Assembly: GCA_964016885.1 (NCBI GenBank) | Contig: OZ024740.1 | Coordinates: 264,740,001 to 264,804,000 of the forward strand | Source of the DNA: Eledone cirrhosa | Taxonomy: Eukaryota | DNA length: 64,000 bases | Direction: 5' to 3' | Part shown: one piece after another, positions 6,516 to 59,844 of the stretch | Layout: each line of letters opens with the position of its first letter | How positions within the stretch are numbered: position 1 is the first letter of the stretch | Translations under genes and position numbers: made by a program | Notes under the pieces: generated by a model | Told to the model about the DNA's origin: nothing | Databases searched by the model: none | The model's input: only the letters and a program-made list of their open reading frames with translations

Positions 6516-8696
6516 CTAGCAGATGTACCCGGCGTTACTCGGGGTTTGAAATTATGCTAAGAATATACAGCTAGGAAGTAAAAGAAGAACATTATTTGTC
6601 CCCAACCTGTCAAATAAGCAGAAATCTTCAATAATTAATGCAAACGAATATTTAGTGCAATTTTTTACACATAAAACTATGCTAATAATGTAGGAAAACA
6701 CTGAACAGGATGTAGTTATACAAATGATTAAAGACAATACACGTTGCAAATCTATAAAAAAAACAGGCAGTTTTTCTAAAGTACAAAAAGTTGTAATGAA
6801 AGCAGAGTTGTGTACAAACAAAAAAACAATGAGAGTAGAATAAGAGAAAATCTATTCTTTGAGAGCATCCTTTGCTGTGTATGGTTAAATGTTTAACTTA
6901 TAATCCAAAATATCCTGCATCACATATTCATTTGTATGTTTTGTAATGAGTAAGGTGAAGTCAAGGCAGAGCTGTAATAAGTTTTTTTGTTAACACTTCA
7001 GGATAGACGATATTCTTTGTTTTTCTTTTCAGAACAAACGCAAAGAGATTATCTCGACTGCTAACTCGTGAGCAGGCAACGTAGAATTGTCCGTGCGAAA
7101 AGCAAGGTTCATCCAAGTGAATTCCAGCGACGGACAGAGTTTGACCTTGCGACTTGTTTATGGACATCGCAAAGGCAACACGAAGGGAAAATTGGGTTCG
7201 GGGAAATGAGAAGGGAGTATTTATTATCACATCCTCGCCTTTTCCACATCAGTATAGAATGGTAGCGTCAATACTAAGTGGAGACAGTTTTATAACTACA
7301 AGGCGTGTACCATTGCATAGTTTTGGAGGAGTGATATTTCTCAGCAAAATAACTGGTGTTCCCTCTTTCAGAACCAATGTATTTGGAGGTAAACCAGGAG
7401 GATTTAAAGAATTTAGAAATTCAACTGGATAATTGACCGCATCCTGTGGATCACATAGAGTATCAATAGATTTATATATCCGTGGACATCCAGGAAGAAG
7501 CTGAAGAAGCTGATCGTTAATACAGCTAACCGTGATATTTTTTAGTGCAAGAATGGCTCTTTCGCATAGCCAATCAAAATTCGTATAGTTATCACGCAAG
7601 TTCGGGAATACACTCGCCTTGAGATCATCGACAGTTTCAATTACATTGCAGATGTGATCAATTGCTATGTGTCCATCTGTATCCGGAGGTAGGTTACCAT
7701 CTCCTATTGTAAGAATGTCTCTAGAAAATGTTGATGACAGAGGGTCCCCATGCAAACTCGCACGCACGTTGGTAGTTAGTTTTAATCATGTCACTTGTCG
7801 CCACAATGGTGAAGACATAAGACATGCATTTACCGCATCTGCTCTTGTTCCTTTCGGTATTATAGGAAGAGTCTGTCTGAAGACTCCTGATAGCAGAAGG
7901 GTGACACCCCCATAACATCACTGCAATCGCGTATGTCTTGCAAAGACCTGTCTAGTGCCTCAAGAGCACCTTTGTGCGCCATTGTGCACTCATCCCAAAC
8001 AATAAGGTGACACCTTCGCAGCAGATGAGCCCTTTCGGAGTCTTTGGTGATATGACAAGTAGGAGTTTCCAATTTTGCCAAATCAAGGGGCAATTTAAAA
8101 ACTGAATGTGCCATCCTTCCACCAGGGAGCAAAGTTGCTGCCTTTCATATTTTTGTACTGTCTCTGCAGATCTTGCTGCAGCAGTATCTGTAGCATCCAT
8201 AGCAAGGCGTGTTTCACGTTGCTCTGTAGTCTCTGCAGCCTGTGCTGCAGCAGTTGCTTTAGCATTATTGGTTCGCCGCACTAACCGACGCTCAGCGGCG
8301 GACAAAGATGTTGCAATCACCGCATTTAGTGATTGTCTATTTTCGGTTATCGGCGGAGCGTCATTTACACGCAATATTTTCTTCGACCGATAGCCAATAT
8401 GTGCGTCCTTTCTTTTACGGGGCATATTTGGTGAAAAGGTTATCTCCCTTTTTTATAAAGATTGTCAATAAAGTTTATTATCTCCCTTACATCAATTTTT
8501 CTACCGATAAATTTGATATCGATTTTTTATTGCTCAACGTGGGTCGATTTGAAAAATGTTTCGGATGTGACAATCTTAGTGACCTGTGCAACGTGCACAG
8601 ACAATTTGGTCAAATTCAGTTGGTAATTGTGAAAGCCTTATGCATGCAAAGTTGTACACAGACACACACACATCCTCGCTTTTATATATATAAAGA
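6516..8696 (-). mobile_element. Internally deleted Helitron (STPR-like N-terminus joined to PIF1 helicase C-half)
   Basis: Minus strand: A|TCTTTATATATATAAAAG 5' end at 8696; hairpin CCCGAGTAACGCCGGG then CTAG|T at 6516; helicase motifs IVWDECTMAH, LCNGTRL, FAMSINKSQGQT, FSHGQFYVACSRV. Confidence 0.92.
6961..8143 (-). pseudogene. Helitron PIF1-family helicase C-terminal half, frameshifted
   Basis: ORFs 7860..8132, 7249..7767 and 6961..7230 are colinear PIF1 pieces; Walker A is absent. Confidence 0.9.
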
Positions 8697-10779: not shown

Positions 10780-13300
10780 TCAAGCTGCTACCTAGGGCCT
10801 CATATATCGGAGGGTCCATTCCTTATGGAGTTTTCCATAAAAGAGGGCTGGGCTTATGTTCTGTAACCAACCTTGGAAGTTCTTAGATATAGTGCCCAGT
10901 GTTCTTATGAAGATGGGTTCTTAGGACGATACGAAGCTAGATATTTTTCCTTCTCAAAAACCACGAGGTACGGTTTATTGTGTTTTAATTATTTGTCCTT
11001 TTGTATCCTGAAATCCCACAGATCTTTACCCGGTCATTTACTATAACCAAATTTGGCTTATGCCCAAACCATTTCTCAGAATGAAGTTACTTGCTCAGTT
11101 TGCAAAAATACCAATGAATCACATATCCTATGATATCATGGTTCTATCCTTTATTGCGATTCTGGGCTAGGTGTTGACACTCGGATACGATGTGAGCCAG
11201 TTTCCCCTCCTTTTCTCTACAGGGATTCTACAGAGTACTCTAGCACAAGGATTCTACAATGTGCGCTAGCATCCTCCTTGACAATATGGTGTTTCGCTTC
11301 GTTCGAAGGGCTTGCTCTTGTGCAGCCAGTAGCATTCCAGCAGTAGCTTTCTTAAGCCCGCGCCCCGTTTAAACTAGTTCCATGTCTGTGAATCGATGAA
11401 TTTTTTTTTCTTCTAAAGATGCTATGAAGGGCTATTTAATTCAGGTTATTCTTCCTCTTTATTGTTACTAATTTATTGGACATCCCCTGGTCTATTGATG
11501 TCCCTTTCAATACAGCCTTAAGCATTCGTCCGTTACTCTCAGACACATATTTGTGTAGACAGCTTTTCACCATCTGAACACAGTCCTGCACGCTGTTATG
11601 ACCTCTTCCACCTGCAGGTCTCTTTAAGTACAGTCTATCAACATCACCATTATTATGAAACATACTGTAGGTACTCATTCATTTCCTTGTCCTTCAATCC
11701 AGTCCTTTTGTTCGCTTACATTCAATTTAAGAATTCCTGCACTATACCTAATAATTGTTTCTAATTTTGGCACAAGTCCAGCGATTACCCAGTACATTAC
11801 TGGTACTTTGTTTTATTAACTCCATAAGGATGAAAGGCAAAGTTAACCTCGGCGGGATTTTAACTCAGTCCGTAAAGAGACGTAACTGTGCTGCAAAGAA
11901 TGGCGTCCGATCCTCCACTGATACCGTACCTAATAATAGACACACCTCAGAAATGTATTGCACTTATAATATTTCTCCTATTCAGCTGTGATTTTAATAT
12001 GTTCATTACTCTTATATATTCAGATCTTATCATCTCATTCATTTTAATGCCCTTGGTGTTTCAACCGAGATACTGAAATCAGGTTGTTGTTGTGGTTTTT
12101 CACTAACCTCATTTTTAACGGTCTCACTCCACACTGCCTGACTATTATGCTCAACATCCTTCTCCCATATGCTCCTCCAAAATATGTTGGTCCGTTCAGC
12201 CTCACGAATAGCATTGTCGTCTCTTTCTTTCCCGTCAATCTGTTCTCGTAACATCTTCTGGTTGTTGTCGAACATGTAGTCGTGTCTATATTGGCTAACT
12301 CTGCTCTTATATCTTTTACTTTTTTCACTTTTGGCTATGGCACGTTGCTTTATTTCCTCTATTATAACATATAGCCATTTTCCCTTTGTGTTATATTTCC
12401 TTGTCAATATATCTTTAGTATCTATGTTTTGTAATGTCCCGTTTAATACAGACTCAAGTCTCCCGATGACCTTTCTTATTTCTTTCATTTGATCATTCAA
12501 CCACTTCTTCCACCAAGGTTCTGGTTTTTCTCGTCTGGTATCCCTTGATTTGATACCAAGCGATTTTTCACCATATTTGTGGCTATTTTGAGTATGTTTT
12601 TACATTGTTTGATTTTTCGCCTCAAGGTATGGGACAACCCTGTTTACCTTAGCTTTCGTTTCTTTTAACTTTTTTCTATCTACATATCTTTGATTCATAG
12701 GTTTTCCACTATTTTTATTAATTTCAACCACCATTTAAAATCCCGCCAAAGTTAACTTTGCCTTTCATCCTTACGGGGTCGATAAAATAAAGTACCACTA
12801 ATGCATTGGGTAATTGCTGGCCTTGTACCAAAAGTAGAAACAATTATTAATTTCAATCACTATTAAATTCAGAACATCTACAAAATCATGCCCTAGCCCG
12901 TCGCACTCATTTTCGCAATGGCCGAATTTTTCCACCAGATGTTATTTATCTCAAACCTTAGATCATTGTTTGTATCGGTCACTTCCTCTGGTCTCATAAC
13001 TACTTCACACTCACTTTCTACTGTTTCATTTGCTTGGTTCACTCCACATTCTACGGGATCATTTTCCTGATCTACTTCACTTTCCGTTTCCAGCTTAATC
13101 TCTCTACTCAGTTCCTCCAATTCTAACTCAAGTATCCATCCATTAGTTCTTTGTCTAATTGAAATAGACCAATATTGTTCCAGATTTTATGTATTTGTTT
13201 CCTATAGCCTTTCTTAGTTGGATCACTTTTTAGATAACACTTCATTACAGTTTTATTCAATTCCTTCGTCCAGTTGGTTCTTGCCTCATTCCTTCTTCCT
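10780..13300 (-). mobile_element. Decayed R4/Dong-like RLE non-LTR retrotransposon, RT core missing, with two SINE fragments inside (about 11755-11925 and 12738-12850)
   Basis: Motifs WTKELNKTVMKCYLKSDPTKKGYRK, FWRSIWEKDVEHN, RLYLKRPAGGRG, HIVSECQHLAQ..HD..IHW and PIFIRTLGTISK. Confidence 0.8.
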
Positions 13301-13549
13301 ATAACACCAGAAGTATTTGGATCATAGCTAGATCCATGCTGCTGAGTCTTTCACATGAAGTTCCAGCCTCCTTTTCACCGTTATTTGAAATTATTAATTT
13401 TAAACTACTCATATATAGGATTAGTAAATTTGAGGTTATACTAACACCAGTATTTTTAACGTGTCATCATCACTAAATTTGTGGAGGGATTTATGCGTCA
13501 ATTTTATCATTATTAAAATTAAAGTTATTTTTGCCGTCTTTAATGTTTT

Positions 13550-16500
13550 CTTTCAAATCAGACACAAAGGGGTCAATACAATCCCGGACGACGTGAAGTT
13601 GCCGGAAGGGTAAGGAATTCAAATAATCACTGAAGGTAGAGGCCACACTGTATCGTCTGTGGTGAAGCCACACACCTGTGAATCTTTTGCCCCAGCTGAA
13701 AACTGCAGGGGGCCACTAGCCTCTGTTGCTGCCAACAACGGTGCCTGGACAAACCATCATACAGGTAATAACACCGGCACCAACAACAGCAAGAGTAGAA
13801 ACTGTACCATCAGCAACAGCAGCATCTAAACCACCACCATATACAGAATCAACTCTAGGTGAAAATGAGGAAAACCCTCCCACTCTCTCTCCCTTTCCTA
13901 AAACACACACACACACACACATGCACTGTCACACTCACACAAAAACATTACCATGATTAAAATGTCTCAGCTACAGAGACTTCTTACTCTCGGAGTGAGA
14001 GTCAGAAACCCAAAGAGCCGAATAACTAAAAGGTGAACCAAAACATCCTCCAAGCTATCAACATACACAACAATTCAAAACCAAGAAAACATAAAAACCA
14101 CACAGACAACAAACACAGAGAGATCCACAGCAACATGAACGCCACCAACGCCAACACAATCGCTTCCACAATCACCTAAACATAAACAAGCACTTCGTGT
14201 TGGTGAGAAGAGACAACGAGAAGTTCATGGCCTTCATAGCACAAAGTAAAGAAATTGAGAAGGGCGAAATATTTGGCATGTGCACATTTCGAGCACAAGA
14301 AGATTTGATGATGGTAAGAATGTCGCTGAATATCGTCAATGCCATTAGAGAGAGCTTTCCACGTGATGTGGGAACACCTAGTATTAAAGATACGAGAAGG
14401 TTGTTAAAGGGGTTCCCAAAAACCCACACCAAACATGGTGGTAGAACGACCCTACATCCACAAGCACCAGTATGTAAGTAAACCTTTCTCTCTCGTTCAA
14501 CCAGCCAGCATGGCTATCTTAAGTGTAGGTTGTTTAAATTGTTGTGGCCTGGGGTCACCCTGGAAGCAGGGTGGTTTGCTTGACAAACATCAAGACATTA
14601 GATATGGATGTGACAACCTTGACTGAGACCAGAATTTCCGACACACGCGCACTAGACACTATTTTCGACGTCTATAAGATATTCGCATCGATTAGTCGGC
14701 CAGGAATTGCAGATGGGTTGGCAGTGCTCTTTAGGAAAGGCCTACATCTCAAAGTACGAACGATCTTCCTGGACCCGCACGGTAAGTTGGTGGTCCTGGA
14801 CGTGAGCAATAGTGAAGGTTGTACCTTTAGACAAGTGCCGTCTAAGCCTTGACAAGGATCGGATGGTCGGATTTCTTTAGGCACCTGGAAATCTTTCTGG
14901 GAACGTCTCACACTTTACGGAATTGGCTGGAATTGGCTGGGAATAGCCATAAATGCCTGATCAGCCAGTTCCAGCTATTTTACAGGTAGCGACTGGATTT
15001 CCCTAGTGTGCCAATGTAGATCTGGACAAACCGCATAAGGTCACCGAGATCTTATATAGATATCTTTTTTTTATTTTTAGGTCAGTAGATAAGTATAGTA
15101 TAGGTGGTCCACATTTCCGAAAGGTCACGTATTCAGATCAAAATTTGTGATCTGCATGGTTGATATAGAAAAAACTTATAGGTTAGGACCTAGTTACTGG
15201 AAGCTCAATACGTCATTCCAGCTTGTAAGGCTTACAGGGCCCGATTCACCACTTAGGTTAAGTAGAAGATGACAGGGATTTCGTCAACAACAGGTGGTGG
15301 AGACTTTCAAGAGAGAGATAGAGTAGTGCCAATAGGTTTGACTAAAGAAGTAGCGTCAGAAAAAATATAAAAGCGAGGAGCTGGTAGCGTAATTAGACGA
15401 GGTGATTAGATGTGGCACTGCAAGTAACGTGCTAGTGACGAGTATGGCGTTAGACAATTTCTTCAATGCAAGTTACGAAGATTAGATTGTCAGAGCTAAG
15501 GAGCGTGATCTACGAAACGAGGGAACAAAAGCTTTTCGATGCGCCCGGGTGGCAGAGGTAAAAAAATACATGATTTGTACTTTGATGAACCGAGACGAAC
15601 GTGTACTGAACGTTTCCAAGCAGTTGTGCGTCCTTTCACCAGCACTTTTCTTAACTTTTCAAGGAGAGTAAGGGGTCGGAGATGGTGGGTACTTCAGTTC
15701 CTATCTTAACCTCTTCTCGCAACTGACAGCGGAACGGGAGTATTCCCAGTTTTGTGAGCCGGTAGTGACGCTGATGAGGGAAGACGAGGACATGATAGAG
15801 ACTTTAGATAATTTCTGGCCCATAACCCTGCTCAACACAGAGTTTAAGATTTTGACAAAGGTGTTAGCAAAGAGGTTAGCTTGTCGTCGATGAGTTTGTA
15901 GGGGAGGCGTATTGATTCTCAAGCCTTTATTGCGGAAGCTGGATGTATTGCAAGGCATCCGCTCGATCCGGGACACAGAAGGGCTGTGTCGACATACGCG
16001 GACGACATCACCGTGATGTTGTCGAACACCTCGGAAATTGAGGTTGTCGGCACCCTCTTGGAAGAATATGAAAAGTTAACGGAAGAAAAACTAAACCCGG
16101 AAAAATCGGTGGGCTCTCCGTTTGACACGTGCAGAGGAATGTTCTTGCCGTACAACAACATCGTCGGGCGCTGGATGGACGGACTGGTAAAGTTGCTCGA
16201 TGTTTGGTTCAGACCAGTTCTCCAGATGGATAAGAGTTGGGATGAGGTAACGATTATGGTAGCTACCCTCACCCAGAAATGGGCCGAGAGGAAGCTGTCT
16301 GTGTAAGGTCGGGTGTAGGTGGTGATCGCGTACATCGCGCTCCGTCATCTACTACAACATGACCATCGTGACTTGCCCCCGACTTGGTCTATCTGCTGCC
16401 AGCTCCCTCTACCAAGAGGGCTAGGCATACCGTGGCTAATGATGCGCTGATATGCTCTGAGGCTCCGGCATCTCCAGATATTCTGCCTTAACGGCGAACA

Positions 16501-19380: not shown

Positions 19381-22300
19381 CTATAGGCGCATGGTCAGAG
19401 TAGGCCCATTCACACGAGCCATTCTCGCCACATTCGCCCACCTTTTAGCAAATGTACTGGGGGGGCAGCACTTCTCTCTCCACCCCACCTTCCTTTCCAG
19501 GTGAAACTTGAAGAAGTTGATGAGGGATTGGCCGAAGAGAAAAGTGTCTGTCTTTAGTCCTTTCAACCTGGTCCACCATATAATCTCTTTCGCAACTGCC
19601 ACCAGACAGAGAAAAATTTCCTGCTCTTCCTGACCTAAGGAAGGCGGTGGATCGATCTTCACTATGGACTCGGCCTATAGCCGGATTCGTTCTACACGCG
19701 ACAGTAGCTGTTCGACATAACTCCACGAGTCAGTAATGCACGGACATTGGACAAGTGCGTGCAGAACGGTTTCGTCGTTCTGTGCGCATCTTGGGCAGGT
19801 CCGTCTGACAGCACTTCCGTGCCTGCAGAGTTTATCCCGAACCGGCAGTGCCCCCCAGTAGCACTGCCAAGCGAGGGATTTCTGGAAATTGTCCATCGTC
19901 CCCGGTTCAAAAGTCCTCCGGTACAGACTGGTCAGTTCGACTTCGTCGAGGCCCAAAGCTTTTCCGAGTGCGTCATCGCACTTTCCCACCACTAATCCTC
20001 TATAGAACTCGAGACTGGAAGTTCCGCTGATCGCATTGCCCGCTTGGTAGAAGGCAGTGAGTGTCTGGCAACATTCCAGGTGCCAGTCACCCAGTCTCGG
20101 TCTCTTCTTGACGCAGGACTGCAGCTCGGTCAAAGAAATGAGCTGCGGAAAGGCCCGTCTGATAAACAGCGACCACACCTGTTCACCATTGAGGCAGAAT
20201 ATCTGGAGATGTCGCAGCCTCAACGCATGTCTGCGCATCATTAGCCACGGCATGCCCAGCCCTCCGCGTAGAGGGTGCTGGCAGCAGATGGACCGCCTCA
20301 CCAACGGAACTTGTCCCCTCCACAATAATTTGAAGAGGAGCCGTTCCAACTTGACGAGGCGCGGACGGGGGCAAGACACGACGGTCAGGCGGTAGTAGAT
20401 GACGGACGCGATGTACGCATTCGCCACCTCCGCTCGACCTTTCAGTGATAGCTTCCTCGCAGCCCATTTTTGGGTGAGACTGGCTACTCTGCTCGTTACC
20501 TCGTCCCAATTCTTTTCCACCTGGAGGTCTGGTCTGAACCAAACCCCGAACAACTTTCCCGGTCCGTCCGTCCAGCGCCCCACGACGCTGTTGGACGGCA
20601 TGGGCTTGCCTCTCCATGTTCCGAGCTGCAAGCCCACCGACTTTTCCGGGTTAAGTTTGGCTCCTGTGAACCTTTCATATTCCTTCAATAAGGTGCCGAC
20701 CACCTCGATTTCTGAGGTGTTCGACACCATAACGGTGATGTCGTCCGCATAAGCCGACACCGCCTTTCCGCGTCCCGGTTCGAGCGGGATGCTCTGCAAC
20801 AGCTCCAGCTTCCACAGTAAAGGCTCGAGAGTCAATACGTACAGAAGGGAAGAGAGAGGGCACCCTTGACGGACCGATCGGGAGAGCCGAAATGGTTCCG
20901 AGAGGTAGCCATTAACCTTGACCACCGAGCGTGTGCCGCTGTGCATTGAAACGATCCAGATTCTAAAGACAGGGCCGAAGCCAGCTGCTTTGAGGACAAA
21001 CTCCAGATACCGATGGTCGGCCCTATCGAATGCTTTCGATTGATCTAAATTGATCAGTGCCCCACCGAAGCCAGGTTTACACCCCACCCTCTCTATGATG
21101 TATCGCATGAGGTGGAGATTGTTGTGTATGGACCTGGCTGGGATTGCGCAATCTTGCGCCTCCCCAGCCAAATCCTCGACGACAAGCGCCAATATCTTTG
21201 CTCACACCTTGGCCAAAATCTTAAACTCTGTGTTGAGCAATGTTATGGGCTTGAAGTTGTCTAATGTATCCCTCTTGTTCTCGTCTTTCCTTATCAGCGT
21301 CACCACGCCCCTGCTCACAGAACTGGGAATACTCCCATTCTGCTGCCAGTTGCAGTAGAGTGCTTCGAGGAGTTCAGAGAACAAGTCTGGCATATTTACG
21401 TAAAGCTCGTATGGCAGGCCATCCAAACCGGGTGACTTGCGCCTCATGCAGCCGACAAGGGCGTCCTGAATTTCGGCTGAAGTAATCGGCCTTTCGCAGC
21501 GCTCAGCGTCGACCGTCGAGATGCGCGGCAAGCCGTCAAGGTAGGGACTGAAATCCGCTACTCTCACTGACTCGCCACTCTCCCTGAACAACCGAGCAAA
21601 GTGCTGGCGAAAGGCCTCATACATCCGCTTTGAATCGATTATCTCGTGTCTGTCTCGGTCCGTCAAAGACCGAATTGTGGTTTTATTACCACGCTGCGCC
21701 TCCGCCACGCGGGCCCATCGAACAGCTTTAGTTCCCTCGTTTCTCAGCGCACGCGCCTTAGCTCTGACAATGTAACCTTCGTGTTTGGCATTGAAGAAAT
21801 GGTCTAATGCCATTCTCGCTGCTAGCACGTCAGTTGCGATGCCACTACAAATAGCCTCGTCTAACTTATCTACCAGCTCCCCCTCCTTCCTATTTTTCTC
21901 TAACGGTAGTTCTTTGCTGAACTCTATCGAAGTTACTCTAATCTCTTTTTTGAGAGCCACCCACCATCTGTTGTTGGTGATCCCCCAGTCAACTTTTGCT
22001 TAAGTAAATTGTTGACTCGGTCCCTGTAAGCCTTACGTGCCGGACATGACATGTTCAGCTTCCAGTAACCCGTCCTAACCTACGCGTTTTATTTAGGTCG
22101 ACCATACAGATCACAAATTTGTGATCTGAATAGGCGACCGTTTTAAAAAGTGGACAGCCCACACTATTTCTATCTATTTTCCTAATGACGATCCTATCTA
22201 TATACGATCTAGATGACCCCATTCGGTTGGTCCATGTCCATACTGGCACATTGGGGAAATCTAGTCGTTACCTCTCAGACAGTTGGAACTGGCTGAGTAG

Positions 22301-22800
22301 GTGTTTGAGTCTTTTGCACCCCCCGCTCCTATCGGCTACTCCCACACAATCCCAGCGTGCGTCTAAGATGCCATTCCAGTCCCCCGCTAACAGTAAAGGG
22401 CGAGACGTACCCAGAAAGGTCTCCAGGCACCTAAAGAAGTCAGGTCGTCCGGCCCCTGTAGGGGCATAGGCGGCCAGCAGTCTAAAAGCACCACCTTCGC
22501 TACTGCTCACATACAAGACCACCAACTTACCGTCCGGGTCCCGGAAGATCGACCTTACCTCATGATCCAGTCCTTTCCTAAACAGCACTGCCACCCCACC
22601 CCCATTCCCGGCCTGCTAACAGATGCGAAGATCTGATAGTCGTCGAAAATGGGGGCTAGTGCGCGCGTGTCGGAAATTCTGGTCTCGCTTACGGCAATCA
22701 CATCCATTTCCAGCGACCGGAGGTCGTTGAGCAGGCGACCCTGCTTCCAGGGTGTCCCCAGGCCGCGAACATTTAAACTTCCTACTCTTAATATGGCCAT
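19381..22800 (-). pseudogene. Tx1 ORF2: AP endonuclease, reverse transcriptase and C-terminal zinc finger, split over six ORFs
   Basis: SLNVRGL, SET, AGDWN, SYIDRI, SDH, KSPGLDGLP, DQSKAFDR, RQGCPLS, YADD, CPRC..ETVLHALVQC. Confidence 0.95.
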
Positions 22801-22809
22801 ATTGGTAAG

Positions 22810-24615
22810 CTAAGAGAGAGAGGGGGAAGGTTTACTTACCTCCCGGGTCCTGTGAAGGTCGGGTGGTTCGACCTCCATGGTTGGTGGGGTTTCTTTTGGG
22901 AACCCCTTTAAAAGTCTTGATGTGGGTTTCACATTCGGTGTTCCCACGTCTTGAGGAAAGCTCTCTCGAATTTCTTTGAAGGAATTGAGTGACATTCGGA
23001 CCAGAAGCAAATCTTCTGGCACGCAAAATGTGCTCATTTCAAAATTCTTCCCCTCTGTTTGAATGTCCTCGCTTCGCGCTAAGAGGGCCATCAGTTTATC
23101 GTTGGCCTTTCTGACAAGCACGAAGTTCTTAACATTTGTTTTCGTTTTGGTGACTGTGGTGGGGATGGTTTTGGTGGTGTTGTTTCGAGTATGTCTATGT
23201 TTGTTGTAGGTGTGGTGTCTGCAATTTCAGGTATTTGTGTATTTATTTGTACTTGTGTTTGTTTAGGTTGTTTGCGTTTCGGGGATTGTGGAGGTGGTGT
23301 CGATGTTGCCCGTTGGGGATGATGTTATTGGGAAGTGTTTGCGTTAGTGGGGTCTGTATTTTTTGTTGTGTATGTTTTTTGTGTTTTGTTGGGGCTTTTT
23401 TTTTTGTGAGTTTTCTCTGTGTTTTTGTACTTTTGGGTTTTTCTTCATCTTCGCTGCTGGAAGACAAAGGGTCTGTGTCTGTGCGTGTCTCTGTGTCTGT
23501 GTGTGCGTTTATTGTTTTGTCTATGTGTATAATTGAGGGGCTAGGGGGAGTGGGAGAGCTTTCCTCGTTTCCTGCTTGGATTGGTTTTGGTGTTGGTGGT
23601 GATCCGGCTGCTTTTGATGTTGGTGTCCGTGTTTTTGTTGGTGTTGTTTTCGGTGGTGATGGTGGTGCAGCTTTCCGTGCTGACACTGGCGTTGGCAACA
23701 AAGGAGGTTTGCGACCCCCTGCATTTTTGTGCTGAGGGCAGAAGGCTTGAAGATGATTGCTTCCCCGCAGACGAAGCAGCGTGGCCTTCTTCCGTCAATA
23801 ATCAGTTGGATTGTTGTCCTGTCCTGCAGGCGGGCAAAATCCGGGATGTTATTCATATCCTCCCGTTTCATTTGGAGAAGAATCTCCAAATCCATTCCGG
23901 ACCACTCCTCTCTCTCTGTCCTTTTGATATCCAGGAGGGTAGTGTCTGTCCCCTCCTCGATTACGCATCCCAGCAGCCACCATATGTTAATTCCTGGTGG
24001 GATGCTGGGAATGCGTACCATTACTGTCCTTTTAACCATGTAGGACGGATGCATGATAATGCGTTCCGTTCTGCAGGGGGTCACCGAGTGCTTAATAGCG
24101 AGAGCCTCGGTTTTGAACAGAACCGAGATGGTACCGAACTGTTTGCCTCTTCCTTTGTACTCTATGTTACTTCCGATGTACTCCAAAGCAGCCTCTACCT
24201 CTGCTTGGCTCGCAAGTTCCACTTTTCGTGTCTGCACCGAAATACATCGAAAGAACACCGTCCTCCTTTGCATGGCCGCTATTGCCTCGTCCGGGATGGT
24301 CAGGTTTGCCCAGGACTTCTCCCGTTTAATTAGCCTCCACGCTTTGGCCAACTGTTCGTCTTCATCGCTAATATCAATATCAATATTCAATAAGCGCTTT
24401 GTTTTTGCTGCTGCTGCAGCAAATGTGGTGCTTCTGATGCTCTTGTTGTTGGTGTTGTCATTCTTGCTGTTGTTATTGGTGTTGCCACTGCCATCCGTGT
24501 TTACATTGAAGCTGTCGGTGTTATTGTCGTTATTGCTCTGAGTTGTTGTTGTTGTGGTGGTGGTGGTGGTAGCGTTGGTGGTGATGTCGTTTTCAGATGA
24601 TACTGCTGCTATCAC
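22810..24615 (-). pseudogene. Tx1 ORF1 (nucleic-acid-binding, CCHC knuckle, P/T/K-rich tail), frameshifted
   Basis: RCFVCGE..NHLQAFCP is restored by a 1-nt frameshift near 23760; ORFs 23521..24615, 23243..23701 and 22810..23121 are colinear. Confidence 0.8.
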
Positions 24616-25544
24616 AATAATATTGGATCGGTGTTTTATTTCATCAATCTTGCAAGGATGTCAGGCAACGTTCAGCCTAGCGAGAGTTGTACTTGGAACT
24701 TAAACACCCAGATCAATAAAGCAGGGCATATTTTTAGCTCTGAAACAAGCAAAATGGTTTCAACCGATTATTTGTAAGTACCATTTTAATATGATGGATT
24801 GAGCAACAGAAAAATAAATATTTCTGCTGGTATTATGTGTGTGATAAAACAAACAGCGCAGGTAGAAGGACCATAAGAAACCTTTTGTTGGTTTGAGAGC
24901 TGATAAAGGTGATTATGTGTGTGTAAACTTGTCTTGTACCGAATTACTTTATTTCCTGTTTCAATCTTTTCTATGCGCCCACATACTTCTCCTTATCCCC
25001 CCTCTTCTTTGAATATTTTCTATATTCATCTGCCTGTCACCTATTTTGTGGAATGTCTCTCTGTTGAACCATGGCCACTGATCTCTGTCCTCTTAGGCAA
25101 TTTTTCCCATCACTGTCTTTGACAGCATTTACCTGTTTTAACGGCTGTTCTAACGATGAGGTTTCTCATTTTTGTATGTATCGAAATACACTCTCACTTC
25201 ATCTCGACCAGAGACAACATTGGTTTTTTTGTATCAATTTATCATAGCTAGGATTAGATTTCTGTTCAGGAGAGACATCATAGCTTGAGGTCCACTATCG
25301 CATTATTTTCTTTTCTTTGATTTTTTGGTCCTTCTATCTGTGTCTATTTTATCACACTCACAGCATACCATCAAGAAGATGTATTATTCTGTTGCTCGTT
25401 CCAGCATTTCAAAATGTTTCTCTCAATGAAATTGTGTTAAACCATTTTGCTGGTTTGAAAACTGATGAGGCTGGTGTGTGTGTGCGTAAACTTGTCTTGT
25501 ACAGAGACAACATTGTTTTTTCATATATATATATGTGTGTATGT

Positions 25545-37764: not shown

Positions 37765-37840
<76 letters not shown>

Positions 37841-37912
37841 GGAAATGAAAAATGGCGTGCTCCGTTGTTGCGAATATGAACATATAAATAAAAATGGACC
37901 GAGAAACAAGAA

Positions 37913-38016
37913 TGTCCTTCATCAGTAGCCTCCTGTTTATCATTGGTATTTCTTCTCATTAAAGACTAGACACCTAAAATCAGTGCGAGCGATAACTAAA
38001 TTAAGTTATCGGGACA
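37913..38016 (-). ncRNA. Permuted hammerhead-like RNA, copy 2 (partly decayed)
   Basis: Same 104-nt register as 38438-38541; GUC site; substitutions in the k-turn G and in helix c. Confidence 0.65.
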
Positions 38017-38437
38017 GAGGAAAACAGAGGAAAGGAAACAAACAACATGGTAGTAATGTAACGTAAAGAGAGGAAAAGAGAGACAAGTCAATGAATCTTG
38101 TGGGCTTAAATCCGACAAATAAAATGACGAGAAGAAACAGGCGCGTCTGAGCCACGAGAAAAGTGAGAGAGGAAAGAAATTCACGCAGGTGAGACGGGAG
38201 GATGTGAGAGGAGGAGTAGCAGAGAGTGAGTGAAAGTGTGAGGAAGGGGCCAGCAGCGGGAGTGGAGGAAAGCAAGAGGTGAAGGAGAGAGAAGAGGGAG
38301 AGAGAAAGAGGAAAGCAGTAAGGTGACAGAAAATATACGCACCACAGCGAAGGGAAAAAATATATGTGAATGAAAAATGGCGTGCTGCGTTGTTGCCAAT
38401 ATGAACATATGAATAAAAATAGACCGAAAAACAAGAA

Positions 38438-38541
38438 TGTCCTTCATCAGTAGTCTGCTGATTATCATTGGTATTTCTTCGCATTAAAGACTAGATACCT
38501 CAAATCAGTGCGAGCGATAACTAAATTAAGTTATCGGGACA
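38438..38541 (-). ncRNA. Permuted, k-turn-containing hammerhead-like RNA, copy 1
   Basis: TGTCC CGATAACT taattt AGTTATCG c TCGCA CTGATT TGA GGTA TC TAGTCT ttaa TGCGA A GAAA TACC AAT GAT AATCAG c AGACTA CTGATGA A GGACA. Confidence 0.72.
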
Positions 38542-38571
38542 GAGAAAAACATATATGTATGTATATATATT

Positions 38572-52216: not shown

Positions 52217-52289
52217 GATGTGTTGGTGTAAATGGTAACACATTGGTTACGGATAACCAAAGATGTGGGTTCGACTCCCATGTACATCA
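52217..52289 (+). tRNA. tRNA-like cloverleaf (pseudogene or SINE head), isotype unassignable
   Basis: Acceptor GATGTGT/GTACATC, D-stem GTGT/ACAC, anticodon stem TTGGT/ACCAA with 8-nt loop, T-arm GTGGG-TTCGACT-CCCAT, downstream TTTTT. Confidence 0.6.
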
Positions 52290-53099: not shown

Positions 53100-56000
53100 C
53101 AATCAATGTGTCAAATAGGGCATACGATACATTGCATTATGTTCTTGTATTCCCAAAAGGTGAAAATGGATGGAACATGTCTGTTCATTTAGATGATCAC
53201 GAGAATCACCATCAACAGGGAGGTGGCAATAGACAATAAATCAATTCGCGACTTTTACGCGTTCCATTTGAACGAGAGGAATCAACAGAGAAATGCACTA
53301 TTTCAAGCCAGCAGATTGTTCCAGGAATACTGTTGTATGGCATTCGCAAAGATCGAAAATCAAAGGCTAAATTATATAGCTACACATCAGCAACATATCA
53401 GAGCTGAATTGTATAATAATATACAAGATGCGATAACAGCCGATGATGCCAATTACTAGCAAATTGGTCGACGCATCATTTTGCTATCGCCGTTCATCGG
53501 CGGCCCGAGATATATGAACATTCGCTATCAGGATGCAATGGCTATTGTCAGAAAGTTTGGAAAACCAGATTTGTTTATAACGGTTACATGCAATCCTGAA
53601 TGGACTTATATTAAGGATGCCCTTTTTCCAGGACAACAGCCATAGGACCGTCCTGATATTGTGGCAAGAGCATTCAAAGGATATCTGAAAAAGATAAAGG
53701 ATGATGTGGAAAAAGAGGGAATCTTTGGAGGTATAGTTGCTTTTACATACATAATTGAATTCCAAAAAAGAGGATTGCCACATGCACATTTACTGATCAT
53801 TTTACATAGAGATTGCAAATTGAGATGTGCTGAGGATATTGAAAGTAATGTGTGTGCTGAACTGCCGGAGAATGAGGCACTACGCAACTTGTTGGCAAAG
53901 TTAATGGTGCACAACCAATGCGGAGTTAAACATCGGAGAGCGCCTTGCATGAAAAATGGCTAATACAGTAAGCACTTTCCGAAATCTTTTGTCATGAACA
54001 CTTTCTGGAACGATTGGGATGCTCAGGCCTCATACAGAAGACGGCCGCCTGCCGATGGTGGTTTGGTCGAAAATATAAACTGTCGACAGATTACAAATCA
54101 ATGGGTTGTGCCATACAATCCATATTTGATTATGAAATATCGTTGTCATATTAATGTGGAAATTTGAGGCCCAGTGAAAGCTTGCAAATATCTATTCAAA
54201 TATGTTTACAAAGGTCATGATCGGGCAATGATCAATGTCAGGAATGAGGAAGCGAACCAAGGAGATGATGTTGGCAGGTTCCAGGATGTTCGCTCGATTG
54301 GATCTAGCGGAGCTTGCTGGAGATTGTTCGATTTTCATCTCAATGAACGCAAACCCAGCGTTCAGAAACTGACGGTTCACTTAGAGAATAGTCAAAAGGC
54401 TCTGTTTTCAGGACACTAGAAGAGGTGTCGAAAGAATTGCTAACGCACCACATCCTAAGACGGAATTGACTGAGTGGTTCAAGCATAATAGGGAACATGC
54501 TTTGAACCCGGATCAAAGGCATCTCTACTGCGATTTCCCTTCGCACTATACGTGGGATAAGAAGGGAAAGAAATGGAATGATAGAAATCAAAAGTTGAGA
54601 TTCATGACTATTGGACGGGTTTGTAATGTCCATCCAGCATCTGGTGATGTGTTTCATCTCCGAATTCTGTTGCATAAGGATTTTTCGAGAGGTAAACAGA
54701 GCTTGGCTGATTTGAAAACAATCAATGGCGTGGAATATGAAAGATACCAGGCTGTGTGTCAACATCTGGGACTCCTTCAGGATGACGCTGAATGGAATAA
54801 CGCCATGGAAGCTGCAGGAACAACACAGATGCCAGCTCAAATAAGGCTGTTGTTTGTCACGATTCAAGGATTCTGCAATTCTGCCGATCCAAGAGAGTTA
54901 TTTGAATGCCATTGGGGAATTATGGCTGATGATTTCAGGCATCATCTTCAGGTCGATGATGACAATTTGATGATGGCTATTGTTTTGCTCAATATTGAGC
55001 AACTGCTTGAACTTCATTTCAAATGTTTAACAGATTTCAATTTGTCAATTCCTGATGAAGAAATACGGCAACGTGTCTTAGCATTGAACATAAGATTGCA
55101 GCTTAGACGGCTGCGCCTTTATCGGAGGGAACTATTCCAGTTTGATCCACTGGAGCAGCAACGTATTGTGGATGAACGTATGCCAATGTTGACCCAATTT
55201 CAGAGAGAATTGGTCGATGGCGGTCTCCACTCGATTTCCACTAATGAGCAACTTTGTGCTTTCACAGATGCTTCAGGAGGCACCGGAAAGACATTCTGTT
55301 TCAACACTATGTTATCGGCAGTCAGAGCTCTGAGGAAGATTGCTCTCCATGTGGCCACCAGTGGGATCGCTGCCACTTTGCTGAGTGCTGGAAGGACCTT
55401 CCACTCATGCTTCAAGGCTCCATTGGCTCCGGACGAGTTGAGTGTATGTAAAATTACAGGACAAAGTGAACTGGCGGGCGTTATAAGCAATGCGTCTCTG
55501 ATTATTAGGGACGAGACTCCAATGGCACACAGATATTTGCTGGAAGAATTGGACAGAACTTTGAGAGATATCTGCGGTAGTGACCTGCCATTCGGTGGTA
55601 AGACTATTGTTCTTGGTGGCGATTTCAGACAGGTGCTACCAATTGTTAGGAATGCTCAGAGAGTGCAAATTGTCGAATCATGTCTGAACAAATCCCCGTT
55701 GTGGGGCCATTTAAGAGTTTTGCGATTACACGATAATATGCGATTTCGTATGTTCGGGCAAAACGAAGAGGCTGAGACATACGGCCGATGGTTGATGCAG
55801 TTGGGAAACGATGAATTGCCTCACGTTGGTGATAATCAGACTGTAAGAATCCCAGACCATTTGGTCATGCCACTGGATCGCCAAGCATTGATTGACTGGG
55901 TGATCCCTAATTTGAATGCTTTTTGGCAGAATATCTCCTGGATATCGGAACGCGTTATTCTAACTCATACGAACGCAACGGTCGATGAAATAAATTCACA

Positions 56001-56563
56001 AGTAGCCGGAATGTTTCCTGGAGAGGTATCGTTGACCGTCAGTGCGGATGCAATGGAGCCTATTCAGCAGAACAATATGGAAGTTCCGACTGAGTATCTG
56101 AATTCACTTGAAATACGGATTTCCCCCACATATTTTGAGGTTGAAAAAGGGTATGTCGATTATATTGCTTAGCAATATCAATCATAAAATGGGTCTTTGC
56201 AATGGTACCAGTTTGATTGTTGAGAGATTGATTAACGGAAGAGTTTTAGAAGCTAAACACCCATGCAGAGGGGAATCGATTCTCATTCCGAAGATCATGC
56301 TGAGACCAAGTGAAGATCTGCTGCTATTTATTTGGCAAAGGAGTCAGTTTCCCGTCAATTTGACCTTCTCCATGACTGTCAACAAGGCACAGCGACAGAC
56401 TTTCAAGCGACTCGGTGTCTACTTGAATCATCCAACATTCAGCCATGGGCAACTGTATGTTGCTGCATCTCGAGTGTGCGATCCTGATGGTATAAAAGTT
56501 GCAATTGATACCACTAATAGAGGAACAACCCTGAATATTGTCTATAATGAAGCTTTGAGCTGA
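53098..56563 (+). pseudogene. Helitron RepHel (HUH Rep plus PIF1 helicase), 5'-truncated, with stops and frameshifts
   Basis: GKPDLFITVTCNPEW, RPDIVAR, EFQKRGLPHAH (HUH), KYLFKYVYKGHD (Y2), GGTGKTF, GGDFRQVLP, FSHGQLYVAASRV. Confidence 0.96.
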
Positions 56564-57540: not shown

Positions 57541-59400
57541 TCTTACATACAAAGTGAAGTTGGGCGTTGTTTGTTTGTTTGGTGTCCCGAACTTGCAGGC
57601 TACACCGTTCATCCGATTTTCATGAAACTTGACACACATATAAAACTCGACCCGTAGATTGGAATACGCTGGAGCAAATTTTCGAAAAATCGATTAGCGG
57701 TCTCCCAGAAGCCAAAAATCAATATTTTCAAAAATCGTCCGATTTCGATGAAACTCGACGCAAGTGTGTATTTTGATCCGCGGATTAACGTGCGCTACAT
57801 TGAAATTAAAATCGATAATTGGATCACCAGAAGGAAAAATCGATTCAAATGAAATTTGACGTAGGCATGTATTTTGATGCGGGTGTAAACGTGCGAAAAT
57901 CCGGCAACCGAAAAACGCCATTCTCTTGCTTCCATTTGTCGCGACTCCCGCCATGCAAAAAACGTTCAATCTATCAGGATTATCCACAGTAAGTCTCTTT
58001 AAATTAACGCTCACCATATTCAGAAAAAACTTTTATGCCGATTCTTCCATTTCTTATATAAGGACTATCAAGACTACACCGCCGCTCATCAGCCTGTATT
58101 GCCCCCAGTCTTCTCAAGCGATCATCGAGCCTCCATGCGCTCTCTTCATTCCCGTTGTCCCACTACCGTAGCATAATGAGGCATCCGTCAACCCCTGCCC
58201 TCTCCCTTCCCTGCACGCCGTCGATCCACTGAATCGATGTGCATCACCATGCGCATCTCAGCCTTGTCAGCCACAATTCATTCCTCGGCTCTTTCCATTG
58301 CTTGCCCTCCGTGATCCCTAAGGACTACCATGGCTCAACATGCCGAATCCCTGCCACTTTCAAGTAGCAACACTTTCATTTCTCCTGACATGCCTTTCTG
58401 TCAATTATGGCCGAGAAGCATACTGTGTAGCATCACTTCTTCCCAAGCGATCAGCGTGCCTTCCACTGTCCTCACAATTGACTCACAACGCCGCATCTCT
58501 TCCCTACGATGCCCCTAAACATCATCAGCATGGCTTATTTTTCTGCCGCGTTTAACCGGCCCTCATTCTAGGCCATAAACAACAAAACCGCACGAGGATG
58601 TTGCGTAAGTCTATTTATATTAATGGTCAACATGTTCAGCAATACAATTGTACCAATTCTTACTCTTCACCTCCAAGGCTTATCCATTACATCTTAGAGG
58701 TCGGGATTCGCAATTTCTACGATTTCAATATTGACACAACAGTCCGTCAGGTTTTTCGGCACATGTTCACAAACCATACTTGAAGACACGTTGAGGCTGC
58801 TGCAAAGGGCAATAACCCTAGACACAATTTTGATCAAGTTCTTTTCACCTATAGCAAATTTACCGGGACAGGTTTTTAGCTACTCAAATCTACTTCAAAG
58901 ATCAGGAATTCATGTGAAAAATCAATAAAACTGAAGCGGGGGTTCGACTTTGCGTAATAAACAAAGTTGCACATGGGAAAACCTTTTACAGGAACGTCCG
59001 ATTTTCTTGAAAACTGTCGCAAAAGACACGCCATTATGCCGCGGTTCAGATAAAGCCCCGGTTATTTCTTCTTCTGCACATGTGAGCGCGAAAATTGTAA
59101 AAAAGAAAAATGTGAAAAAATCGACTTTTTCACCCTGCTTCAAAAATCAACTGAAAATTCAATTTCAAGTGAATTTGACTTCCGTCAGTCGTGCAAAGAA
59201 CAATTTCAACGATACACTGTGAACCTACAATTGAACCATTATTTATGCTCAATTACACACCTGCGTCTACTAACCTCTGTTTTTTTTCCTTGAGGTTCGA
59301 AGGTTTTTGCACCTGTGATGCGCGGGAAGTAACTTTCACACATTTTAACAGCAGAGCAGAGATCGACTTACACCTGGGCAACGCCGGGTACTTCTCCTAG
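57541..59400 (+). mobile_element. Non-autonomous Helitron with unidentified internal sequence
   Basis: A|TCTTACATACAAAGTGAAG..(GTTT)n..CCGATTTTCATGAAACTTG; CCTGGGCAACGCCGGGTACTTCTCCTAG|T. Confidence 0.85.
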
Positions 59401-59473
59401 TATATATATATATATATATATATGATAATAAGGGCGCTGCGGAGTTGCAAATGGATTACATATGAAAAAAGTT

Positions 59474-59577
59474 TGTCCTTCATCAGTGATCTTCCAACTA
59501 TCATAGGTATTTCATCGCTTTAAAGACCATACACCTCCGGTTGGTGCGAGCAACGGCTAAAAAAAGTCGTTGGGACA
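59474..59577 (-). ncRNA. Permuted, k-turn-containing hammerhead-like RNA, copy 3 (diverged, covarying)
   Basis: TGTCC CAACGACT tttttt AGCCGTTG c TCGCA CCAACC GGA GGTG TA TGGTCT ttaa AGCGA T GAAA TACC TAT GAT AGTTGG a AGATCA CTGATGA A GGACA. Confidence 0.72.
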
Positions 59578-59761
59578 CGTAAATAAAGGGGACGCGAGGG
59601 TAAACAAACAAAATGGTGAGGCAACAGAAAGTGAGGAAGGAGGAAACAAGTCCCAGATTTCTATGAATTTAAGTTCGGTGAAATCGTGAACGAGAGAATA
59701 AAGACCATCAAACCTGGTTGAAATGTGAGCAAGGAAGGAATTTCGCACAGGTCTAACGGGA

Positions 59762-59844
<83 letters not shown>

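Follow-up and report, generated by a model that had tools for sequence, protein, structure and literature searches.

The window, i.e., the whole 64,000-nt stretch of Eledone cirrhosa DNA that was analysed, contains three copies of a hammerhead-like motif, at 59474–59577, 38438–38541, and 37913–38016. All are on the minus strand, 104 nt long, and gap-free, as the original prediction had it, and a profile search revealed no further copies in the window. The 59474–59577 copy differs from the 38438 and 37913 copies at 26 and 29 positions, respectively, and the latter two differ from each other at 6; the three copies represent two lineages only, and statistical support for the motif comes from genome-wide subfamilies. 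The features are as follows.

59420–59764, minus strand: 5′-truncated subfamily-B copy (345 nt) of a non-autonomous tandem retroelement (monomer ~620 nt), 98–99.7% identical to a subfamily-B monomer
59474–59577, minus strand: hammerhead-like motif of S-G-C order with leader helices P1–P3 and a kinked stem III
59573–59577, minus strand: P1 5′ strand UGUCC, partner GGACA (10.x strand) at 59474–59478
59551–59572, minus strand: P2 hairpin, with one A·C mismatch in subfamily B
59545–59549, minus strand: P3 5′ strand UCGCA, partner at 59515–59519 (11.x strand); putative functional stem II
59531–59544, minus strand: 5′ part of block S, with the P4 strand (59539–59544), the non-bulged kink strand GGA (59536–59538), and the stem III strand plus U16.1 (59531–59535)
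59529–59530, minus strand: predicted cleavage position, 3′ of H17 (A59530), placed by structural analogy only
59520–59529, minus strand: stem I strand UGGUCU and the 4-nt linker UUAA to P3
59494–59514, minus strand: block G, with U11.1, GAAA (59510–59513), stem III strand, 3-nt bulge (59503–59505), GA-U kink strand, and P4 strand
59474–59492, minus strand: block C, with stem I strand AGAUCA, CUGAUGA (59480–59486), A10.1, and GGACA
59420–59473, minus strand: 3′ tail with its end in (TA)n, at the CAUAU site +54; other subfamily-B copies end at +14 or +64
59401–59423, no strand: 3′-end target tract of (TA)n; another one starts at 59765
37835–38551, minus strand: subfamily-A insertion, a 5′-truncated partial dimer with motifs 38438–38541 and 37913–38016, 525 nt apart

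Read on the minus strand from 59577 to 59474, the first part of the motif consists of UGUCC, a hairpin, C, UCGCA, CCAACC, GGA, GGUG-U-A, UGGUCU, and UUAA, and the second part of AGCGA, U, GAAA, UACC, UAU, GAU, AGUUGG, A, AGAUCA, CUGAUGA, A, and GGACA. The 5′ to 3′ order of blocks is S (cleavage block), G (GAAA), and C (CUGAUGA), a non-circular S-G-C arrangement that fits the permuted hammerhead proposed earlier and is not the circular C-G-S order of the classical types I, II, and III. The three window copies have exactly the same CUGAUGA, GAAAUACC, and UGUCC/GGACA, and the A-U pair at 10.1/11.1 is indeed present in the 59474–59577 copy. UGUCC/GGACA does not amount to an ordinary stem II: the stem II strands pair instead with the 5′ leader, as P1 (UGUCC/GGACA) and as a fifth, previously overlooked helix, P3 (UCGCA/UGCGA). 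The host unit, first placed at about 59425–59765 between (TA)n tracts, does have such tracts on both sides, but it is really a 345-nt 5′-truncated piece of a larger monomer, the monomer spacing in subfamily B being 619–626 in eight of nine tandem pairs.

Other elements lie nearby. Helitron-like Rep/helicase frames occupy 54385–56560 (plus strand), and a hairpin followed by CTAG at about 59365–59400, left of the (TA)n tract, is taken by us to resemble a Helitron 3′ end. Another helicase-like frame is found at 7252–7785 (minus strand), a decayed R4/Dong-like LINE, 67–78% identical to a family whose ORFs are intact at other genomic loci, at 10944–13438 (minus strand), and L1/Tx1-like RT, endonuclease, and ORF1-like frames at 19678–24660 (minus strand) and 15902–16344 (plus strand), a region with an inverted repeat (15959–16339 versus 20407–20787). 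An Rfam tRNA match of 47 bits at 52217–52289 (plus strand), beside (TA)n, is possibly the head of a tRNA-derived repeat.

The motif resides in a dispersed non-coding tandem repeat with one hammerhead-like motif per monomer, the organization characteristic of retrozymes. Monomers are 470–720 nt long, with 38–45% GC and 67–71% pyrimidine on the ribozyme strand, and contain no credible ORFs. A tighter core pattern yielded at least 23,057 matches in the 3.0-Gb assembly versus 18 in the control; a loose G-to-C block pattern yielded 25,677 versus 347 in a reversed control, so the motif is not a chance occurrence. Divergence in subfamily E is 0.8%. A DNA similarity search with the copy at L015:2654–2757 gave no match, and a pattern found the same subfamily in thousands. 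The pattern scan of JGI metagenomes returned two matches, both unpaired and taken as chance, and two patterns returned none in IMG/VR; sequencing-run contigs from two other organisms (two and one, respectively) are not numerous enough to demonstrate that the motif exists in further species.

Among 44 terminal copies of subfamily B, 14 end at +14, 13 at +64, and 3 at +54, and 36 have (TA)n; among 42 terminal copies of subfamily A, 15 end at +31 and 7 at +78, and 26 have (TA)n. The 3′ ends thus cluster at two or three CAUAU sites with (TA)n. Of the 58 insertions, 18 or more contain an inverted 5′ copy. Every insertion extends through the intact predicted cleavage site and ends downstream of it, and 5′ truncations do not accumulate at this site (two interrupted matches out of 46 begin at −1/0).

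Within the window, the 38438 and 59474 copies are related by seven double compensatory changes, two changes to G-U, and three broken pairs. The single double change in helix I is as originally described. The proposed covariation in the hairpin and in CUGAUU/AAUCAG, which becomes CCAACC/AGUUGG, is likewise seen, with three double changes in each, although an A·C mismatch in the quoted hairpin helix and a C·A mismatch in CCAACC/AGUUGG had gone unflagged. The k-turn G·A pairs, which had been considered retained, are kept only in part: the non-bulged G is missing from the 37913 copy and from 28 of the 29 other top subfamily-A matches listed (U in its place; A in one). Being so rare among these matches, it is a private change of the 38438 copy. 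Similarly, the cleavage triplets read AUC, GUC, and GUA as quoted, but GUA (59474 copy) and GUC (37913 copy) are private mutations, the triplet being AUA in the 29 other top subfamily-B matches listed and AUC in subfamily A. Correcting these details (k-turn G2n, triplets, stem II, and unit size) leaves the inference of selection standing.

For the genome-wide comparison, 290 near-full profile matches were collected from fetched loci. Thirty-seven matches with indels were left out, one 2-nt-shorter group being re-extracted as subfamily R (12 copies); 253 indel-free matches were kept, with 13 left unassigned. Sorting produced 21 subfamily consensuses, the samples of subfamilies A and B having been picked for closeness to the query, and four consensuses with fewer than three copies were dropped to leave 17 for the tree count. 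In stems I, III, and P4, the majority of positions are paired in 20–21 of the 21 consensuses, and the terminal pairs in 17 and 18. In an unguided scan of 2628 column pairs, the best five all belong to the proposed structure. When the 17 subfamilies were connected by a minimum spanning tree, double changes numbered 37, one-sided changes preserving the pair 17, and broken or restored pairs 26 (the subfamilies are related, so the counts are not fully independent); this is the comparison of compensatory and disruptive substitutions on subfamily consensuses that had been suggested at the outset. When partner columns were permuted 5000 times, the number of double changes averaged 4.3 and never exceeded 15. 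The helices that covary across the 17 consensuses are stem I, stem III, and P4, the helix beyond the 3-nt kink. In the drift of individual copies from their consensus, 28 double, 119 one-sided pair-keeping, and 193 broken or restored changes were seen; double changes thus make up 37 of 80 between subfamilies versus 28 of 340 in drift.

Real copies gave a similar picture. Over 30 of them, 91.9% of cells are paired and the covariation score is 0.655, compared to 0.246 for shuffled and at most 0.15 for slid alignments. Stem I is paired at 96% with two-sided changes at all six pairs, and P3 at 86% with two-sided changes at three of five. In a set of 15 full-length, closer copies, 96–97% pairing is seen for P1 and P2; two-sided changes affect two of the five P1 pairs (96% of cells paired) and none of the P3 pairs. 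P3 is the weakest helix in the tree count (13 broken or restored versus 5 kept changes). The 11 core sites have 0 changes versus 212 at 65 other sites, a contrast partly imposed by the search, as several subfamilies were found by patterns requiring GAAA, GA, and CUGANGA. The catalytic letters are present in sets collected without imposing them, namely subfamilies A, B, and C (DNA similarity), V (leader pattern), and the LINEs described below (protein). Substitutions that are random with respect to the proposed pairs are contradicted by the permuted, shuffled, and slid controls. The covariation indicates that the motif is a real RNA structure under selection in more than one subfamily, as the original prediction had inferred.

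The core has the letters of a hammerhead. CUGANGA, U16.1, and H17 occur in 21 of 21 consensuses and GAAA in 20 (partly pattern-imposed); U16.1-A15.1 is found in all 21, and H17 is never G. The same core letters occur in LINE copies found by protein, and stems I and III adjoin the core and covary, as a hammerhead requires. A hammerhead stem II, formed by the strands that follow CUGANGA and precede GAAA, is reduced to 0–2 bp: no pairs in 7 consensuses, one in 12, and two in 2. The 10.1-11.1 pair itself is formed in only 14 of 21, and in three subfamilies, as well as in the LINE, positions 10.1 and 11.1 are also engaged by the leader. With so short a stem II and so inconstant a first pair, a core built like that of known hammerheads is not guaranteed. 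Subfamily V, an old one, has its two leader strands side by side and lacks an intervening P2 hairpin. Subfamily E (L121, L131) and L194 each have a one-base deletion after CUGAUGA that moves G into 10.1, with C now at 11.1; the resulting G-C pair is seen in these two separate lineages.

Stem III runs on past the invariant 3-nt bulge into P4. Kink-turns of the box C/D type consist of a 3-nt bulge followed by G1b·A1n and A2b·G2n between two helices. Here, the 3-nt bulge and G1b-A2b are present in 21 of 21 consensuses (GA in 22,150 of the 23,057 genome matches), A1n in 19, and G2n in 13, with U in the remaining 8, making the kink canonical in 13 of 21 only. The full G·A/A·G/U·U set occurs in subfamily V and several others; in two consensuses, Watson–Crick pairs replace both G·A pairs and leave a plain 3-nt bulge. 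The bend in stem III may be k-turn-like, and, the full signature being limited to these 13 consensuses, we refer to it as a k-turn-like bend. Nested minimum free energy folding of the 59474–59577 copy did not favour the motif (z −0.86; pseudoknots are outside the model) and is uninformative for the S-G-C topology.

By analogy with known structures, the motif is predicted to self-cleave as an S-G-C variant of the hammerhead ribozyme, and we consider such cleavage very probable. With either gathering or E-value thresholds, Rfam gave no hammerhead match in the window, in the region, or at the LINE loci. A canonical hammerhead spanning the tandem junction or lying on the other strand was considered and rejected: neither strand of 14 doubled monomers has a GAAA in the 60 nt downstream of a CUGANGA. 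Type-SGC hammerheads (HRIMA-1 and SGC variants), whose cleavage was validated in vitro, were described by Eckert et al. 2023 (PMC10085705), who searched RefSeq and metagenomes; they reported no SGC RNA in genomes of known organisms, and non-circularly permuted hammerheads were limited to metatranscriptomes and metagenomes plus one weak bacterial candidate. The published SGC pattern (G10.1-C11.1 and 2–6 further stem II pairs), re-coded by us and run without a positive control, recovered 0 of 252 copies in strict form and 3 of 252 when relaxed, which would explain why the motif went unnoticed. In the literature searched (Repbase Reports, most subscription journals, and bioRxiv supplements were outside the scope), the term “type-SGC” occurs in Eckert et al. 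2023 only, and within the same scope we found no publication that combines a hammerhead ribozyme, a k-turn, and a retrotransposon.

The same fold is carried by LINEs. A spacing-only pattern run against GTDB gave 12 matches, 11 unpaired and one, L322, paired (6/6, 4/4, 6/6, and 4/5) with new sequence; P1 is weak there. The match lies on CAMQSH010000302.1 (L322/L355), a 2.7-kb contig inside a bacterial bin that reads as animal DNA; its LINE fragment and tRNA-like genes resemble teleost host DNA and point to probable contamination of the bin. The motif directly follows the C-terminus of a restriction-like endonuclease (RLE) for which R2 is closest among solved structures, and the nearest named proteins are teleost RTs. 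The LINE fragment was absent from 11 other genomes of the family to which the L322 bin is assigned, and IMG/VR yielded no relatives of the LINE protein. Two fish protein read-throughs (P0041, P0048) end in peptides resembling the translated motif, an observation that is suggestive only; evidence from a second taxon thus comprises one DNA contig and these two read-throughs.

A search of the octopus genome with the L322 C-terminus uncovered LINE copies in which the stop codon is followed by this fold. An SGC descriptor matched within 500 nt of 18 of 34 RLE C-termini (L322 included, counted by locus) and of none in reversed controls; 16 of the 18 loci belong to or adjoin one LINE family, and several of the failures are visibly decayed homologues. 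The consensus of the main family (15 copies) is Watson–Crick at 38 of 38 positions in six helices, with P1 in a 9-bp version and P3 formed by GGGUC/GACCC (GCUCC/GGAGC on L322). The element has a single ORF with RT and RLE. Judged by C-terminal motifs and by descriptions of the clade (PMC4640811, PMC10294476), the LINEs carrying the motif appear to be R2-type and HERO-like. In one partial tandem (L356), a complete copy of 3.6 kb comes after 611 nt of 3′ end, the LINE tail runs straight into the LINE 5′ end at three loci, and some terminal copies end within the letters of this junction, which fits a continuous (circular or multimeric) template. HERO-like copies are few and broken among those scored (150 of 51,905 RT candidates). 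Common ancestry of the repeat and LINE motifs has, in our estimate, a good probability, and the repeat likely arose from the 3′ UTR of HERO-like LINEs.

S-G-C motifs occur in other RLE-LINEs as well. In another family (L364:6480–6620), which is among several equal-scoring matches (G000:C18) to the L322 C-terminus, the motif has a GUC triplet, an 8-bp helix beyond the 3-nt bulge, and a broken stem I. Motifs with other spacings, mostly decayed, are found ~350–370 nt after the ORF (L353/L360, L354/L361) and in L351, L352, and L362.

A link to Penelope-like elements (PLEs) is provided by one locus pair, L022/L093, where the repeat is fused directly, through a 4-nt microhomology and with no (TA)n between, to a young element encoding an 879-aa RT + GIY-YIG protein. 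Each partner has its own 3′ end in (TA)n, and the young element has many near-identical open copies. The fusion is an isolated case, a further four “PLE1” labels probably being low-complexity matches, and no pLTR sequence is shared between the repeat and the PLE. We also asked whether an autonomous PLE or Naiad could have the motif as its pLTR ribozyme and rejected this for the two PLE families sampled, in which the hammerheads are of ordinary or degenerate form rather than S-G-C. The pLTR of the abundant young PLE (879-aa ORF; L109:~165–205 and the matching 3′ repeat; L093) contains a degenerate hammerhead-like stretch with UUGAU, a 4-bp hairpin, and GAAA, in which G8/A9 are apparently absent. 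A second, Neptune-like PLE (L172:968–1087, L094) has an ordinary minimal type I hammerhead in its pLTR (CUGAAGA, 5-bp stem II, GAAA) and shares (TA)n tracts with the repeat at several loci.

We propose the following model. Stem III would point away from the core, and the 3-nt kink would bend its extension, P4, back, so that P4 continues via one nucleotide into stem I and via 0–1 nucleotide into P3. P3, made of the leader and the 11.x strand, would stack on the core as the working stem II, P1 and P2 would stack on each other, and the 4-nt linker between stem I and P3 would substitute for the usual contact of loops I and II. The modelled fold is cage-like, with a core junction and a distal junction at which stem I, P3, and P4 meet via 4-, 0–1-, and 1-nt linkers. 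Tandem loci would be transcribed, and cleavage at sites equivalent to that between 59530 and 59529 would free monomers of 470–720 nt, whose ends, clamped by ~21 bp (P1, P3, P4, and III), could be ligated into circles. An RT would then nick (TA)n, start 12–80 nt downstream of the ribozyme, and copy through the intact site; such read-through copying would yield truncated, inverted, and more-than-monomer insertions. Circular RNA intermediates seem to us somewhat better than an even bet, and we lean to about the same degree towards a Penelope-type RT as the present driver of the repeat. The explanation as a whole (an S-G-C ribozyme, LINE-derived and Penelope-spread) we hold to be probable. A longer history, in which a HERO-like LINE clade spanning fish to octopus has an overlooked 3′-UTR hammerhead of this permuted, leader-completed, and kinked design and propagates, as PLEs do, through ribozyme-made circular RNA, the motif was captured by the repeat, and a switch to Penelope brought more than 23,000 copies, is tentative and falls a little short of even chances.

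Several alternatives were weighed against this model. The pairings could be accidents of a few master copies, with no structural selection; the subfamilies are indeed related, which makes the counts not fully independent, and 26 pairs are broken or restored along the tree. Yet double changes are far more frequent between subfamilies (37/80) than in drift (28/340), slid and permuted controls score far lower, and the same six helices recur in the LINE with unrelated sequence, all of which makes an accident extremely improbable. A domain-swapped dimer, in which an RNA lends its block C to the S and G blocks of a second RNA, would avoid a multiply pseudoknotted single chain. It would accommodate the tight 1-nt joint between P4 and stem I and the 0–2-bp stem II, and covariation is blind to the difference between cis and trans pairs. 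Dimer cleavage is known for Penelope hammerheads. For an axolotl retrozyme, poor cleavage as a monomer and dimer-dependent cleavage have been reported (PMC7229834). On the other hand, linker lengths are almost invariant across the 21 consensuses and between LINE and repeat, the kink appears to be placed where P4 would return to stem I, and single-chain SGC ribozymes cleave (PMC10085705); we regard the dimer as quite unlikely.

Hardly more likely is a protein-binding RNA handle near the start site, with cleavage slow, protein-dependent, or dispensable and uncleaved multimeric RNA as the template. Such a handle would agree with insertions that all read through the intact site and end downstream, with the lack of a truncation peak at the predicted cut, and with a lizard PLE whose ribozyme mutants still insert and whose cleavage needs protein (PMC11167929). 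It would not account for the persistence of the catalytic letters CUGANGA, GAAA, and UH while every helix sequence turns over, and the repeat and the LINE would have to bind unrelated RTs yet retain the same core. Finally, the ribozyme and its cycle could be as proposed, with the repeat being SINE-like and driven, through a shared 3′ structure, by an R2-type LINE, either an unseen active HERO-like element or the abundant R4/Dong-like one. The LINE 3′ UTR does have the same fold, some LINE copies also end in (TA)n, intact R4-like ORFs of more than 1100 codons exist, and with 150 of 51,905 RT candidates scored there is room for an active HERO-like element. The HERO-like copies scored are, however, few and broken while subfamily E is only 0.8% diverged, no inverted 5′ copy was noticed among HERO-like matches (these were not counted), the two R4-like loci examined lack the motif, and the sole verified chimera joins the repeat to a PLE. 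We consider a LINE driver rather unlikely, and the Penelope-spread S-G-C ribozyme remains the preferred reading.

These results place an S-G-C hammerhead fold in an animal genome, in tens of thousands of copies and with deep covariation, and show why standard and SGC search patterns miss it. If the motif cleaves, stem II can come from a separate strand and a kink can replace the loop–loop contact, which would widen the hammerhead fold. With a ribozyme at its 3′ terminus, a partial-tandem R2-type LINE would offer a direct test of the use of circular RNA templates by LINEs. The findings also suggest re-screening elements said to lack hammerheads, such as Naiads, with permuted patterns.

The motif shares with type-SGC hammerheads (PMC10085705) the S-G-C order, CUGANGA, GAAA, UH, and stems I and III. 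Type-SGC RNAs have a normal stem II of at least 3 bp, G10.1-C11.1, and an additional helix between stems I and II, whereas the octopus motif has a stem II of 0–2 bp, leader-paired strands (P1 and P3), and a kinked, extended stem III, and is found in animal retrotransposon DNA; the linker from stem I to the 11.x strand is 3 nt in type-SGC RNAs and 4–5 nt in the octopus repeat. The LINE resembles RLE non-LTR retrotransposons of the HERO clade (PMC4640811), reported in cephalopods and bivalves (PMC10294476), in its single ORF with RT and C-terminal PD-(D/E)xK nuclease and in the lack of a fixed target or its microsatellite bias. No description of a ribozyme in HERO elements was found in the literature searched, which included PMC13580325, PMC7650587, and PMC13725137, with Repbase Reports outside the scope. 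R2 has an HDV-like ribozyme at its 5′ end (PMC13580325), whereas the partially tandem octopus LINE has its hammerhead-like motif in the 3′ UTR.

PLEs have been described to have 5′ inversions and 3′ ends clustered with (TA)n (PMC11167929; 10.1101/2021.04.23.441226). The marks of Penelope-type insertion are all found in the octopus repeat: as in PLEs, there are partial tandems, 5′ inversions, an optional 30–50-nt tail, AT-rich or (TA)n targets, and a ribozyme upstream of the insertion end (PMC11167929; 10.1101/2021.04.23.441226). Unlike PLEs, the repeat has no ORF. Metazoan non-LTR retrozymes, for which PLEs have been proposed as drivers (Cervera and de la Peña 2020; PMC7229834), likewise are non-coding tandems with one hammerhead per monomer, less than ~45% GC, and thousands of copies. 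They carry type I hammerheads in self-paired monomers of 150–450 nt, and their circular RNAs have been shown (PMC7229834); the octopus repeat, in contrast, has S-G-C order, monomers of 470–720 nt, and 67–71% pyrimidine. The repeat is a variant of retrozymes.
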